Counted from the first letter of the stretch, positions 8,742 to 21,808 are shown. The stretch is DNA of 64,000 nt from Alphaproteobacteria bacterium (GCA_900768465.1 CAAGCY010000024.1:11794-75793); one strand, 5' to 3'. Notes: a model not told the origin generated them from the letters alone. Program-made: numbers and translations.

Positions 8742-8780
8742 AAAACCAAACCTGTCCGTTGGGCAGGTTTTGTTTTTGGA
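8742..8780 (+). terminator. Hairpin plus T-run downstream of the tRNA (aaacctgtcc gttg ggcaggttt tgtttttgg)
   Basis: Inverted repeat CCTGTCC/GGCAGG followed by a T-rich run. Confidence 0.45.
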
Positions 8781-8786
8781 TTGGGA

Positions 8787-8850
8787 AGCCGGGTTCGAGC
8801 CTGCGAAGCAGGTTCAGCCGAAGCGTCAGCGCAGGCAACGCCGGAACGGC
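8787..8850 (+). repeat. Repeat unit 'A' (gccgggttcgagcctgcgaagcaggttcagccgaagcgtcagcgcaggcaacgccggaacgg); second copy at 21819-21882
   Basis: About 90% identical copies. Each contains a short hairpin (AGCCTGC-gaa-GCAGGTT on the left, AACCTG-cgaaa-CAGGTT on the right) with differences that preserve pairing. Confidence 0.6.
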
Positions 8851-8895
8851 GGCCCGTAGGGCGAGCAAAGCGAGTAAATCCTGTCGCCCCGACCA
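8849..8895 (+). repeat. Direct repeat 'B' (ggcggcccgtagggcgagcaaagcgagtaaatcctgtcgccccgacca). It contains a second copy of the last 19 nt of tRNA-Pro (8877-8895 equals 8723-8741); attL-like
   Basis: Exact 19-nt identity to the tRNA 3' end lies 135 bp downstream of the tRNA. A third copy is at 21764-21808. Confidence 0.75.
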
Positions 8896-9560
8896 AACTA
8901 AAAAATAAAAACGGATACCTTTTAGGATCCGCTTTTTTTTATACCCGCTTAAAGCCCAGTTTCAGCCACTATTCCCTCTTGTCAATTTTTAATGCATCTC
9001 GCTGCCAATTACCTTGTTGTCGTATGCACGAGTATACCTTTTGCCCAAAAGTATGCCCCGAGCACTTGGTCAACTTGATTTGTCCACGTGCTCATCAACG
9101 TATTGATTTAAGTCACTTTGCATAACCCTATATGTTGTTTGCATTTCGAATCCAACGAGGTGACCATCAGTGAAGATACTAGCCAAGTGTTTTTTATTAT
9201 TCTAAATCAATGTCATATACTGTCCACTTGCTTCTATAAAAAATTTTTTCATTTTTTTGAGGGGATTTTCCTACCTCCGGGATTTTTACCTTTTGTATCA
9301 ACCATAACAAAAGGAGAAAAAAATGGTTAAAAGCAAGAAGACTGTTTATGAAATCATTCAAACAATCCCGGTCGAAAGCATGGTCGCTCTCTCGTTTCCT
9401 TAATTGCGTGACTTTTAAGCGCAACTAAAAGAGGAAGTGATCGCGCATACGCTCAAGCTCAGAGAAAAGACCAAGGAATACCATCGCGCAGTTCTTGCTC
9501 TGCGGTAAGTTCAAGGTGTTATCCGGATTAAAACAATGGATGAATGCCAAGGGGTGCAAC

Positions 9561-10181
9561 ATGGATAAAAAGACAACTATTTTGTTAGACACTGCCGGCT
9601 TCCTCGCGGCTGTGCATAACTACAAGAAAAGTGAAATCGCGGATTTGATTGTTGCGCTATGCGAATTTAATTTATACGGATGCACTTCTGTAAAATTAAC
9701 GGACACGAAAAAAATTCACTTTGATGCGATTCAAGAAGTAATTGAATTGCGCAATTCGCGTTGGCTTAAAACATGCGAGATTAACGCGCAAAACGCAAAA
9801 GAGCGAACTGCAAATCGCAAAGCGACCGCTGAGCGAAATTCAAGCGAGCCACCTGGACCAGCGCAAACCGACCGCTCGGAAGATAAAGAGAGAGATAAAG
9901 AGGCGGAAAATGTGGATAAGTCTCGATACGTAGGTGCTCCGAATGTTGAAGAAGTGGCGATTTATTGCAAGGAAAGCGGTTATACCATCGACCCGGTCGC
10001 GTTTGTGAAGTGGAATTCCGAGCGCGGCTGAATGAATGGCAAGAAATACATCGCGCTGGATTGGCGAAAAGCTATCCGGAAATGGTTTTGCAAAGAAAAC
10101 GGTTTGTCCTATTCCGAAATGGAGAGCATGACTGACATCTGTCACGATATGCTCAGCAAGGTAAAGGGGGCGCAACGATGA
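9561..10181 (+). pseudogene. Phage early-region protein (replication-organiser-like) interrupted by an in-frame TGA at 10029-10031
   Basis: The ORF from 9561 (MDKKTTILLDTAGF...) ends ...VAFVKWNSERG-TGA. An in-frame ORF (MNGKKYIALDWRKAIRKWF...) begins at the very next codon, 10032-10181. The local sequence ...G-(stop)-MNGKKY..DWRKA.RKW resembles a conserved W-containing phage motif, consistent with a TGG to TGA change. Confidence 0.45.
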
Positions 10182-10837
10182 AAGATAAGCTCCGTTATCA
10201 CACCAGTCCGAACCATGGCCGCACTATTATGAATGATAACCTTGGCGAGGATTTCGAGCAATTCCTTTATGATGCCTGCACCAATATGCTGATGTATTGC
10301 AAAGGTGCCGCTTACGTTTGCATGAGTTCGTCTGAACTTCACACCCTTTACTCGGCATTTGTGAAAGCCGGCGGCAAATGGTCCACCTTTATCATTTGGG
10401 CCAAGAATACCTTTACCTTGGGCCGGGCTGATTATCAGCGGCAGTATGAACCTATCCTCTACGGCTGGGTGAGCGACAAGCCCCACTATTGGTGTGGTGA
10501 CCGGAACCAGTCCGACATTTGGGAATATAACAAGCCCCAGCACAATGACCTGCACCCGACAATGAAACCGGTCAAGCTTGTAGAGCGCGCTATCAACAAC
10601 AGTTCCAAGGTTGGCGAGATTGTTTTGGACGGATTTGGCGGTTCCGGGTCGACTTTAATCGCCTGTGAGAAGACCGGTCGAGTCGCAAGACTGATGGAAT
10701 TGGACCCGAAATACTGCGATGTTATCGTGAAAAGATGGGAAGATTGGACCGGTAAAAAGGCTGTTCTGTTAGAAAGTGGCGAAATATCAAAAAATAATGC
10801 AGAAACAAGCACTTATAATGCAGAGTTAACTGGATAA
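10178..10837 (+). CDS. DNA N6-adenine/N4-cytosine methyltransferase, beta-class C-terminal portion; probably truncated or inactive
   Basis: Contains H.DLHPTMKPV and motif I LDGFGGSGSTLIA, but no upstream DPPY/DPPF catalytic motif anywhere in the ORF. Its start ATGA overlaps the previous stop. Confidence 0.55.
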   Translation: MKDKLRYHTSPNHGRTIMNDNLGEDFEQFLYDACTNMLMYCKGAAYVCMSSSELHTLYSAFVKAGGKWSTFIIWAKNTFTLGRADYQRQYEPILYGWVSDKPHYWCGDRNQSDIWEYNKPQHNDLHPTMKPVKLVERAINNSSKVGEIVLDGFGGSGSTLIACEKTGRVARLMELDPKYCDVIVKRWEDWTGKKAVLLESGEISKNNAETSTYNAELTG

Positions 10838-20029: not shown

Positions 20030-20099
20030 AAAATATTGTTTTTTTTGAAAATAATCGCTATAAATGGTTTATAGGCATATTTTGAAATAAGGATATCGC

Positions 20100-21143
20100 A
20101 TGACTACTGATGACAACTATATACAAATAATTAGAAATTATTTAGGCAATGAGATATCAATTGTTGAAAATTCAGAAAATCCTCTTAGGAAAGCGCTGTT
20201 AAACCTAGATCCATGCTCACGTGAAGGTGAAGGTGTACGCGATGAAAGATGCTCTACTTGTATGGCTTTTGAGTATATGCTAAAGCAAGAGGGTCCAGAA
20301 AAAGATTTTATGGCACTAAAAAAGTCTGATCTTGTAAATGGTGATTTAAAAACACAGGTTGGAACTTTATCAGAGATAATTGCATATTACTGCTTATGTA
20401 GAGCTGGATTCAAAGTAGAATACCAAAGTACAGACGATAAGCCGACAGCAGATTATAAAATAACTTCACCTGAAGGAGAGCAAGCAATCATTGAGGTTAC
20501 TAGTCGTGGATTATGTGATGAGGCTCAAAGTAAAATAAAGGAAGCAAAGCAGGCTCTAGATGAAGCAGTAAAAAATAATAAGGATCCGAACCAGAGAACA
20601 CATATTAGACCATATGGATACAGCAGTGATTCATGTACAGCAGATGCCATAAGCAAGATTTGTTCAATGAAAAAGGAAGAACATCAATTATCTGAAGAGT
20701 TACCTTCAATTTTGTGGGCTGATTTTGGTGTAACTGGTGATTTTATAACAGCTGGAGGATTATTTTATCCTCTAAACTCGTGGAATGGTTGTATAACATC
20801 AGGTCATTTTTGGTATGGTTTTTATGGAAGAAAAGGTTTCCCAATATATACTAATTTTTCAGTGAATAATGAAAATAATATAACCTTAGAAAAAGTTGAA
20901 AAAATGAATCATGATGGTAGATTTAATCAGAAAACAAAACTTTCTGGTTGCATTTTTAGATGCTCATCTTATAGCTTTTTTTATGAACATCCTGAACCTT
21001 TAAATCCAATTTCAGATAATTTTAGAAAAAGATTATTATTGCTACCGAAATTTTCCATTGAAAAATCGCTTGCTAACTTTTATCCAGGACTGGTAAAAGA
21101 AAAAAATGAGCAAATTGAAAAATTAATAAAATCTTTCTATTGA
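20100..21143 (+). CDS. Hypothetical protein (347 aa), visibly AT-rich cargo with a possible PD-(D/E)xK-like nuclease core and an N-terminal Cys cluster
   Basis: The ORF has a ggatatcgc-atg context. CSREGEGVRDERCSTC is a C-x11-C-x2-C cluster. ...SEIIAYYCLCRAGFKVEYQ....ADYKITSPEGEQAIIEVTS resembles an E..(h)..D-x13-E-V-(K/T) restriction-endonuclease-like fold, with T in place of K. No family confidently recognised. Confidence 0.4.
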   Translation: MTTDDNYIQIIRNYLGNEISIVENSENPLRKALLNLDPCSREGEGVRDERCSTCMAFEYMLKQEGPEKDFMALKKSDLVNGDLKTQVGTLSEIIAYYCLCRAGFKVEYQSTDDKPTADYKITSPEGEQAIIEVTSRGLCDEAQSKIKEAKQALDEAVKNNKDPNQRTHIRPYGYSSDSCTADAISKICSMKKEEHQLSEELPSILWADFGVTGDFITAGGLFYPLNSWNGCITSGHFWYGFYGRKGFPIYTNFSVNNENNITLEKVEKMNHDGRFNQKTKLSGCIFRCSSYSFFYEHPEPLNPISDNFRKRLLLLPKFSIEKSLANFYPGLVKEKNEQIEKLIKSFY

Positions 21144-21206
21144 TTTATAGTGTAAACTCTTGCACCTCAACCGTTTGGTTGGGGTGTTTTTTTATGGAAA
21201 AAACGA

Positions 21207-21752
21207 ATGAATACAGCGAAAAAACTTTCAATCAGACTTGAAGCGGTGGGCGGCGACAAGGTCCGGCAAGAGTTCAAGAACATTGGCTCGGACGGACAGA
21301 AAGCCTTTCAGCGGATAACTCAGGTCATCACACCGGCAAATGATAACTTAAAGGTCTTGAACAACACAGCCAAGGCCTTTAATAATACCCTTAAACAGGT
21401 GGCATCGTTGGCCGGAGCATACCTCGGGTTACGCGGGCTGACATCAGCATTCAAAGGAATTGTGCAGACAAACAAAGAGTTTGAAAGCCTGATCGGGTCC
21501 TTACAAACGGTGACCGGTTCGGCCAAAGGTGCGCAAGAAATTGAGGCCTATCTTAAATCTATCGACCTTGTGAACTTTGGCGGCGCGATGAAGGAACAGA
21601 TAGACACGATAGGTGGTGCTATGTCCAACATCGAAGATGCTATCAGTAAATTGGTCCGCTTAGTTGGTGAAAATGGTCTGAACAAAGCCTTAAAAGAGAC
21701 ATTTTTGCAGTTTAATGAGTTGTTAGACGGTTCAGCCGAAGCGATAGCGTAG
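21207..21752 (+). CDS. Truncated phage tail tape-measure-like N-terminal fragment (181 aa) ending at the attR repeat
   Basis: MNTAKKLSIRLEAVGGDKVRQEFKNIGSDGQKAF... is helical with Gly/Ala-rich stretches, like tape-measure N-termini. Its stop at 21752 lies only about 12 bp from the right-hand B repeat. Confidence 0.35.
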   Translation: MNTAKKLSIRLEAVGGDKVRQEFKNIGSDGQKAFQRITQVITPANDNLKVLNNTAKAFNNTLKQVASLAGAYLGLRGLTSAFKGIVQTNKEFESLIGSLQTVTGSAKGAQEIEAYLKSIDLVNFGGAMKEQIDTIGGAMSNIEDAISKLVRLVGENGLNKALKETFLQFNELLDGSAEAIA

Positions 21753-21763
21753 CCAACGCCGTA

Positions 21764-21808
21764 GGCGGCCCGTAGGGCGAGCGAAGCGAGTAAATCCTGT
21801 CGCCCCGA
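21764..21808 (+). repeat. Direct repeat 'B' right-hand copy (ggcggcccgtagggcgagcgaagcgagtaaatcctgtcgccccga); attR-like
   Basis: About 43 of 45 nt match 8849-8893, including 16 nt of the tRNA-Pro 3' end (21793-21808). It is followed at 21819-21882 by repeat unit 'A', which also occurs at 8787-8850 but in the opposite A/B order. Confidence 0.75.

Follow-up and report, generated by a model that had tools for sequence, protein, structure and literature searches.

The morons of lambdoid phages, a concept of the Hendrix group, are autonomous extra transcription units in late operons, and enterobacterial cryptic prophages are kept for their accessory genes, a form of prophage domestication. In lambda-type phages, the cos site lies immediately upstream of terS, and the hotspots of phages P2 and P4 also adjoin cos. 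Here we report on a 64,000-nucleotide DNA stretch from an Alphaproteobacteria bacterium (GCA_900768465.1 CAAGCY010000024.1:11794-75793; hereafter the window, a term that always refers to the whole stretch), which contains, beside a tRNA-Pro gene, an integrase-less lambda-type prophage remnant of 12.8 kb (positions 8898-21729). The remnant holds four AT-rich cargo genes, encoding a GmrSD-type enzyme, a 101-residue protein (orf101), a Fic protein and a 347-residue protein (orf347). The loci in which these genes lie can be compared with phage defence hotspots, i.e. high-turnover loci of ~1-5 kb between two conserved phage genes that contain diverse defence systems (Rousset et al., 2022; PMC9122126).

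The original prediction, made from the sequence of the window, recognized an integrase-less lambda-type remnant with AT-rich cargo, and proposed that the cargo genes had been inserted independently into its decaying head module. The first part was confirmed by the gene identities obtained from Pfam, and by the absence from 8898-21729 of genes for an integrase, lysis, replication and the capsid. The second part had to be abandoned, because each of the four genes was found at the same position in a relative whose terL, capsid and tail genes are complete. We conclude, with a probability of roughly 0.85, that the element is a defective prophage of a hotspot-bearing lambda-like phage family, that its cargo was inherited, and that it is now a small, strain-variable defence island.

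Cargo hotspots in the parent phage family

The element derives from a family of temperate siphoviruses, ~40 kb in size, that is widespread among gut Alphaproteobacteria and uncultured. Relatives of its portal protein at 82-94% identity were found in ~40 species-representative gut metagenome-assembled genomes (MAGs) of uncultured Alphaproteobacteria (human, ruminant, rabbit and chicken samples), and portal relatives are encoded at 165 genome loci and in 562 IMG/VR stretches. With L001, L003, L004, L040 and L225 (L numbers designate the loci compared), the element is co-linear at 88-97% nucleotide identity and shows the same gene order.

Four fixed cargo hotspots, delimited by the anchor genes flanking each junction, are present in the family: H1 between orf92 and terS, H2 between gpW and the portal gene, H3 between the portal gene and the S49 protease gene, and H4 between the tail-chaperone and tape-measure genes. 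At empty hotspots, the anchor genes overlap or are separated by a 3-bp gap; filled hotspots contain 0.3-3.8 kb of DNA with a G+C content (GC) of 0.24-0.40. Occupancy was 22/45 for H1, 22/78 for H2, 32/73 for H3 and 29/40 for H4, and the cargo sorts into 64 clusters across ~70 loci. The expectation of one or two morons per intact phage does not hold here: among the 24 relatives in which all four hotspots were visible, two were filled in 12, three in 5 and four in 2 (19 of 24 with two to four). Three or four filled hotspots were observed in the intact phages L003, L007, L013, L019, L033, L039 and L095, and the window, with all four filled, stands at the upper end of the family range.

Every cargo gene of the window has a counterpart at the same hotspot of a relative. 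The GmrSD gene is present at H1 of the structurally complete L099 (94% protein identity), orf101 at H2 of L003 (90%) and of L225 and L226 (92%), the Fic gene at H3 of L001, L002, L003, L006, L021, L026, L028 and L169 (89-99%), and orf347 at H4 of L007 (81%) and of L222 and L223 (94%); the same Fic gene is also present at H3 of L041 and L087. Complete relatives, then, carry the same morons, an observation that the original prediction had itself named as refuting it. These counterparts show that the four AT-rich genes of the window are hotspot occupants inherited from an intact phage, not later insertions.

The cargo is, in addition, more similar between relatives than its flanks. The GmrSD gene shows 89.9% nucleotide identity to that of L099, compared with 74% for terL and 73% for the portal gene, and the Fic gene 97.8% identity to that of L001, compared with 88.6% for the portal gene. 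Because the cargo is more alike than the flanks, we infer that cassettes were exchanged between phage lineages by recombination in the conserved flanking genes. A Neisseriaceae or Pasteurellaceae origin, with cassette exchange driven by uptake sequences, was considered and discarded, the window containing no DNA uptake sequence (DUS) and no excess of uptake signal sequences (USS).

The defence content of the hotspots was scanned with PADLOC and Pfam for ~20 of the largest cargo proteins of the relatives and the four of the window. Besides a second SoFic type, three PDC-S01 types and four further DUF262 variants (one NsnA-like), PADLOC recognized AbiD, and AbiEii accompanied by a partner gene; the Pfam matches were to HipA, likewise accompanied by a partner gene, to Schlafen/AlbA_2 and PIN_12, and to a reverse transcriptase (RVT_1). 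The H3 cargo of L010 and L012 includes a reverse transcriptase of 248 amino acids (aa). The H4 cargo of L029 consists of sugar-modifying genes (GFO/IDH/MocA oxidoreductase, DegT aminotransferase), not of defence genes.

As to the organization of intact members, which are complete over the sequence that was readable, L001 encodes terS, a 646-aa terL, gpW, portal, S49 protease, the proteins of head decoration, major head and tail tube, and a tape measure of 881 aa; in L222, the tail genes extend to gpJ. A 568-aa large serine recombinase is encoded at the left end, directly after tRNA-Pro, in L225 (Resolvase, Recombinase and Zn_ribbon_recom domains) and in a 35.7-kb composite of one IMG/VR contig (comp277). 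The intact relatives L165, L161 and L162 are also located directly after tRNA-Pro(tgg). It should be noted that a tRNA scan of the first 22 portal-centred loci gave no match, their ±10 kb being too short to include the attachment (att) site, and that the att-side sequence of the relatives was reached by walking along IMG/VR contigs. The exact-sequence look-up of the portal protein returned no record, and a nucleotide search of isolated-phage records returned only two short gut-metagenome fragments; the closest named phage by portal protein, Pararheinheimera phage KLER1-1, shows just 55% identity, and the family has no cultured reference. Upstream of the packaging genes, intact members encode an S-adenosylmethionine (SAM)-synthetase-like protein (PHROG 1569; Pfam S-AdoMet_synt) beside a ParB_N plus N6/N4 methyltransferase (L001 1666-2712 and 3041-4264; L225 15186-17835), a pair that may represent a self-methylation or anti-restriction module.

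Decay of the window copy and fate of its cargo

The chromosomal anchor of the integration site is the tRNA-Pro(tgg) gene (8665-8741, + strand; ARAGORN, Rfam tRNA 68.8 bits), which was the only match in an Rfam scan of 8-24 kb. At the left junction (attL side), repeat search and sequence inspection revealed a host repeat unit of 154 bp (8744-8897) whose last 21 nt (8877-8897) repeat exactly the 3' end of the tRNA gene, AATCCTGTCGCCCCGACCAAA (8723-8743). The right-hand host repeat units occupy 21729-21882, where homology to empty-site chromosomes restarts, and a copy of the att core at 21793-21809 matches the tRNA-Pro 3' end in 16 of 21 bases. Both copies belong to ~154-bp units, which occur as tandem repeats at empty sites too. 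The limits initially given for the remnant, 8742-21808, are essentially those of the element plus the host att-repeat units. Comparison of the tRNA-Pro locus across strains, which the original prediction had recommended, showed that the element varies: the site was empty in all 10 long conspecific contigs retrieved (conspecific by an identical DUF192 protein, which recurs unchanged in many gut metagenome assemblies), with the order DUF192, tRNA-Pro, GNAT, D12 methylase, DUF465, PFK (L207-L215). In the alignment to empty-site strains, homology stops at window position ~8892-8897 and restarts at 21729/21817. The element is, therefore, a bounded, strain-variable insertion.

As reconstructed from junctions resolved to the base by blastn against L003, L004, L040 and L165, at least seven deletions, a nonsense mutation and a frameshift separate the window copy from the ~40-kb phage. 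The integrase cassette (2.9 kb) is missing from the left arm, with a scar in 8898-9300 and one hybrid repeat copy at ~9251-9293: window 8877-9293 matches L165 6321-6737, and window 9236-9700 matches L165 9678-10140. Direct repeats of ~45-54 bp, ~3 kb apart, are present in two copies in L165, L161 and L162 and in a single copy in the window and in a sister remnant from a second strain, L217; in L165, the two that flank the cassette were located at 6675-6737 and 9691-9740, and the corresponding region of the window is 9231-9300. The lost block codes for a 135-aa protein and the 568-aa large serine recombinase, and was removed by recombination between the ~50-bp repeats that flank it, an arrangement that could make integrase loss recurrent in the phage family.

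Further deletions have removed 2.55 kb with the SAM-synthetase-like gene and the ParB_N half of the ParB-methylase gene (junction 10169-10182, 14-bp overlap), 0.66 kb with small genes (junction 11090-11105, 16-bp overlap; L003 5019 to 5683), 1.47 kb with terS and the first ~229 codons (5' third) of terL (junction 14052-14062, 11-bp overlap), 4.56 kb from the C-terminus of S49 through the tail chaperone (junction 19718-19722), a block that in L001 encodes the head decoration, major head and tail tube proteins, and 0.29 kb inside the tape-measure gene (junction 21524-21539). Finally, everything beyond tape-measure codon ~175, including the distal tail, is missing, and the phage DNA is joined to host repeat DNA at 21729. 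Short overlaps are present at most deletion junctions. The nonsense mutation is a TGG-to-TGA change in the DUF6291 gene (stop context compared with L003), and the frameshift affects terL near 14604-14611, at about codon 413 (three-frame translation compared with L001 terL; tblastn).

As a consequence of these losses, the functions essential to the lytic cycle are gone: deletions have taken the integrase, terS, the major capsid, the tail tube and the distal tail, while terL is truncated and frameshifted and the protease is chimeric. Of the head genes that the original prediction described as keeping their order, the gpW head-completion gene (15288-15527, + strand, 79 aa; Pfam gpW 3.9e-11, up to 95% identity to relatives) and the lambda-family portal gene (15892-17364, + strand, 490 aa; Pfam Phage_portal_2 4.5e-110) are intact, but the integrity of the other two was overstated. 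Only the C-terminal two thirds of the terminase are left (terL, or GpA, remnant, codons ~229-646, 14052-15232, + strand), with the Pfam GpA_nuclease match (14232-15232) split by the frameshift over two open reading frames (ORFs), and this remnant is non-functional; the ORF at 18674-20029 (+ strand; Pfam Peptidase_S49) joins S49 residues 1-353 to the 3' end of the tail-chaperone gene. Likewise, the tail module, reported as missing, has indeed lost its tail tube and distal tail genes, but a tape-measure fragment of 181 aa (21207-21752, + strand; weak Pfam tape-measure match) survives.

The sister remnant L217 has most of the window deletions in common; the 2.55-kb block is still present there, and DUF6291 was lost by a different deletion of 1.24 kb. 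A 275-bp insertion in the S49 gene of L217 (12073-12348 of the reverse complement) is absent from both the window and the intact relatives. Independent remnants of the same phage family were also observed in other species (L012, L016, L029, L032 and L041); their deletion patterns differ, and the major capsid gene was detected in none of the five.

All four cargo genes of the window are intact. When six internal deletions of the observed sizes were placed at random (uniformly and without overlap, on a 25.3-kb ancestor reconstructed from the relatives), all four were spared in 0.13% of 200,000 trials under this admittedly crude null, which suggests retention. The additional deletion of L217 spares all four as well, and its cargo shows 97-100% nucleotide identity to that of the window. 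Hotspot cargo is also kept in the independent remnants L012, L029, L032 and L041. The ratio of non-synonymous to synonymous substitution rates (dN/dS) between the window and L217 was uninformative because of too few substitutions (0-8 per gene). Taken together, the data suggest that selection maintains the cargo, as a small defence island. The cargo or defence island of the original prediction is thus plausible, in that two of the cargo genes have matches among known defence families and none was touched by any deletion, but the evidence is suggestive and falls short of proof.

The course of events that we envisage would start from a temperate, lambda-like siphovirus of the cos type, ~40 kb long and equipped with a large serine recombinase, located beside tRNA-Pro. 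At its four hotspots, AT-rich cassettes of ~0.3-3.8 kb, mostly anti-phage defence genes, would have been swapped between phage lineages. After integration, mobility, packaging, capsid and tail functions were lost by deletion and the cassettes persisted, with the phage scaffold between them as decaying filler. The cassettes, if they are autonomous transcription units, could be expressed without phage induction; GmrSD would then attack incoming phage DNA that carries modifications, as a modification-dependent nuclease of type IV, and the Fic protein would act, of the SoFic type, as an AMPylating abortive-infection toxin.

Neutral decay is the most serious alternative to this inherited defence island, but we consider it unlikely. 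In that case, the cargo would survive by chance in a young remnant heading to full loss, unexpressed or useless. The absence of the remnant from the 10 conspecific contigs shown would fit this, as would the intactness of non-cargo genes without evident use (portal, gpW, orf123 and orf92), and the window-L217 substitutions are too few for dN/dS to speak against it. However, random placement so rarely spares the cargo, an independent deletion in L217 spares it too, the catalytic motifs are intact and a perfect promoter is kept (see below), and remnants in other species retain their cargo. Far less probable is the one-by-one insertion of AT-rich genes into an already decaying head module acting as a landing pad for foreign DNA. 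It would explain why the cargo (GC 0.31-0.37) is sharply unlike both phage and host and why four of four hotspots are filled, at the top of the family range. Nevertheless, each gene stands at the identical junction, between the same flanks, in structurally complete relatives; orf101 and Fic are together on the intact L003 backbone; intact phages with three or four filled hotspots exist; L217 already has all four genes; and no transposase, integrase or target-site duplication is present beside any cassette.

The two remaining alternatives assign a present function to the phage genes themselves, and their probability is minimal. A phage satellite (phage-inducible chromosomal island, PICI; capsid-forming PICI; or P4-like) with a minimal head module that hijacks a helper phage would be compatible with the size of 12.8 kb, the adjoining tRNA, and the presence of portal, gpW and part of the protease, a set resembling the gene set of capsid-forming PICIs. 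Yet the element lacks an integrase, a replication or primase gene, terS, a major capsid gene and an intact terL; each gap corresponds to a deletion relative to a 40-kb phage, and the genes at its edges are truncated, frameshifted or chimeric; and co-linearity with the phage at the identities given above is not that of a separate lineage. The satellite-like character suggested by the original prediction is therefore rejected, as deletion from the ~40-kb phage explains every missing function. Least probable of all is a domesticated structural element (similar to a gene transfer agent, GTA, or to a tailocin) in which portal and gpW serve the host. Although these two genes are full length and highly conserved across species, the element is strain-variable and not fixed, it has no capsid, terminase ATPase, tail tube or lysis gene, and active family phages in IMG/VR explain the conservation of the portal.

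Several points weigh against the inherited defence island that we favour. No single intact relative was found with the same four cargo genes, the closest being L003, with orf101 and Fic; moreover, the relatives are mostly MAG or metagenome contigs, some of which may be misassembled. At the junctions, the direct repeat derived from the 3' end of the tRNA gene points more to a tyrosine than to a serine integrase. The permutation was post hoc, and the other remnants, having been found via the portal gene, are a biased set. The loss of toxic phage functions may be favoured independently of the cargo. The remnant is rare (0/10 conspecific contigs shown, and the identical Fic in only 7 contigs), so that any selective benefit would be local. 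Lastly, the defence roles are predicted from motifs and hidden Markov model (HMM) matches, and neither orf101 nor orf347 has a validated relative.

The cargo genes and their genomic setting

The four cargo genes combined have a GC of 0.337 (4416 bp), compared with 0.478 for the retained phage genes (6300 bp); individual values range from 0.31 to 0.37 and from 0.45 to 0.53, respectively. Composition along the window proved non-uniform, as anticipated: 39% of the 400-bp segments inside the element have a GC below 0.38, compared with 0.2% in the rest of the 64 kb (mean 0.54). The contrast described by eye in the original prediction is correct as regards the cargo, but the phage genes are not "well over half" G+C, a figure that applies to the host.

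The H1 cassette (11897-13930, + strand) comprises a promoter matching the consensus TTGACA-17-TATAAT in 12 of 12 positions (11897-11925), the GmrSD-type (DUF262/DUF1524) gene (11989-13896, 635 aa, GC 0.33; Pfam GmrSD_N 1.7e-34, GmrSD_C 1.9e-12) and a terminator hairpin (13902-13930). The protein contains the motifs DGQQR (residue 86) and, in the His-Me region, DIEH-ITP (514-520). Its best PADLOC matches, HEC-06, Orf5 and SspE-type, are candidate or auxiliary models, and mostly cover the N-terminal half only.

The H3 cassette (17379-18673, - strand) contains a class-2 Fic gene (17379-18536, 385 aa, GC 0.37; Pfam Fic_N, Fic and HTH, with a C-terminal winged helix) and a repeat-bearing upstream region. 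The protein matches the PADLOC SoFic model PDLC03963 (E 1.4e-118) over positions 5-359 of 361, with the catalytic motif HPFLDGNGRLGR intact at residue 214 and the inhibitory motif SSQIEG (SxxxEG) at residue 77. The role described for SoFic is that of an AMPylating defence by abortive infection (PMC12249575). A downstream AS1-like antitoxin gene would not fit here, as only 14 bp separate the Fic stop codon from the end of the portal gene. Between the SoFic and S49 starts (~18540-18660), AGTAAAGG/CCTTTACT repeats are present in three to five copies, and the array partly persists in relatives whose H3 holds PDC-S01 or the other Fic type. This suggests the region as a candidate breakpoint of cassette replacement; the array may also be a putative operator for the winged helix of SoFic.

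Like SoFic, orf101 is located on the strand opposite to the phage operon: the H2 cassette (15529-15892, - strand) consists of orf101 (15529-15834, GC 0.31) and a promoter-like site (15892-15864). Neither Pfam nor PADLOC assigned orf101 to a family, and just three homologues were found in a collection of 5.8 billion proteins.

The H4 cassette (20100-21187, + strand) consists of orf347 (20100-21143, GC 0.33) and a terminator hairpin (21162-21187). A word-indexed search returned 8 relatives of orf347, and a profile search of 1.84 billion representatives returned at least 331 clusters at 50% identity. None of the 60 family members sampled matches Pfam, PADLOC, NCBIfam or PHROGs. In the PD-(D/E)xK nuclease superfamily, the core is alpha-beta-beta-beta-alpha-beta, with conserved acidic residues in helix 1 (E), strand 2 (D) and strand 3 (E-x-K). 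The high-confidence structure model of orf347 (predicted local distance difference test score, pLDDT, 89.9) shows a helix (83-101) followed by strands 105-108, 119-122 and 128-135. In the 60 sequences, E92 and E132 are invariant and the consensus reads TPDF...VEVxxK, with a spacing from E to K/R that is non-canonical for PD-(D/E)xK. We regard orf347 as a predicted PD-(D/E)xK-like protein, probably a nuclease of that fold, and a defence nuclease is our best guess. Distant family members lie between a gpW-like gene and the portal gene of a different phage, and on the opposite strand within a myophage tail module; others lie beside a Mu F-like head gene or, in one case, adjoin a restriction-modification gene. 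Such positions in the structural operons of unrelated phages are the signature of a recurrent phage moron. Members of the family were observed at L230 6001-7050, L233 6001-7059 and L234 76-1128. We put forward only tentatively, as somewhat doubtful on present data, that at least one of orf101 and orf347 is a new anti-phage defence gene, orf347 being the stronger candidate, that the phage family, with hotspots placed unusually inside the head-assembly block, is a rich unexplored defence reservoir, and that selection maintains the remnant as an island of four defence genes.

The remaining phage-derived features of the element are, from left to right, the DUF6291 pseudogene (9561-10031, + strand; Pfam DUF6291; 156 aa, compared with ~242 aa in relatives); the 3' fragment (219 aa) of the ParB_N plus N6/N4 DNA methyltransferase gene (10178-10837, + strand; Pfam N6_N4_Mtase), corresponding to residues 225-442 of 442 of a protein that is 407-446 aa long in relatives and matches PHROG 498 and ParB families; and two small conserved phage genes, intact and 89-97% identical to those of relatives, orf123 (11334-11705, + strand) and orf92 (11608-11886, + strand), which together span 11334-11886 and the latter of which is the upstream anchor of H1. 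The stub of a conserved gene of ~119 aa (13944-14062, - strand; DUF3489 in L225) is followed by the deletion junction 14052-14062.

On the right of the element lie genes for a GNAT acetyltransferase and a D12 Dam methylase (22018-23518, - strand). These were considered as right-end prophage cargo and ruled out: both occur at empty sites, and are therefore chromosomal neighbours outside the strain-variable element. The ~154-bp units after tRNA-Pro, each closing with a copy of the tRNA 3' end, are present in one to three tandem copies depending on the strain (window 8744-8897 and 21729-21882; L208 10594-10974), and a similar array was observed in a different species (L165 5998-6339); these arrays may be scars of repeated integration and excision. 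L217 has no GNAT gene. In the conspecific L216, a type I restriction-modification pair (N6_Mtase plus Methylase_S, 11379-14365) takes the place of GNAT and is followed by another copy of the repeat unit, a replacement which indicates that the tRNA-Pro locus is a more general exchange hotspot. Further downstream, a very long ORF of 1114 aa (25336-28680, - strand) overlaps another of 723 aa (25573-27744, + strand) where the AT skew is extreme, reaching -0.63 at 25.8-26.2 kb. Which of the two was called as a gene varied between conspecific contigs, and neither matches Pfam above the curated cut-off.

Comparison with described systems

The repeated colonization of a dying prophage would have been a new route to genomic islands, but this is not what happened. 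Instead, the locus documents a family of temperate phages, from uncultured gut Alphaproteobacteria, whose late operon contains four defence hotspots, and it offers a strain-resolved decay series, from intact phage to L217 to the window copy, along which mobility and structural genes go and defence cassettes stay. The novelty is modest, and resides in the two hotspots located inside the head-assembly block and in the unannotated orf347 family. The anchor pairs (orf92/terS, gpW/portal, portal/S49 and chaperone/tape measure) can be used to mine metagenomes for defence candidates, with the orf347 family and the small H2 proteins as specific starting points.

Among the cargo proteins, the Fic protein resembles SoFic (PMC12249575) in its full-length HMM match, in the HPFLDGNGRLGR and SxxxEG motifs and in its C-terminal domain, and differs in that its cassette has no space for an AS1-like antitoxin gene. 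The GmrSD-type protein agrees with type IV restriction enzymes of that name in having both Pfam domains, the DGQQR and His-Me motifs and a single-gene cassette, whereas its best PADLOC matches are to candidate or auxiliary models.

As regards the hotspots, those of the present family share with the hotspots of PMC9122126 their nature of small variable loci between conserved genes, the presence of known defence families, and the occurrence of the same cassettes on diverged backbones. They differ in being four per phage, and in that H2 and H3 interrupt the head-morphogenesis block at places where, without cargo, the neighbouring genes abut or overlap; in addition, the host is an uncultured gut alphaproteobacterium, the phage has a serine recombinase, and the window copy is decayed rather than active. 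H1, immediately upstream of terS, is placed like the hotspots of P2 and P4. As with lambdoid morons, an extra gene with distinct base composition and its own promoter or terminator is located between normally adjacent genes, but there are more positions, and the genes are mostly recognizable defence genes, not genes for lysogenic conversion or virulence. Finally, lethal and mobility functions are deleted and accessory genes are intact, as in enterobacterial cryptic prophages, from which the window copy is distinguished by being young and strain-variable, with an intermediate state of decay seen in L217. The element thus joins two known kinds, namely cryptic prophages that keep accessory genes and phage-encoded defence hotspots.

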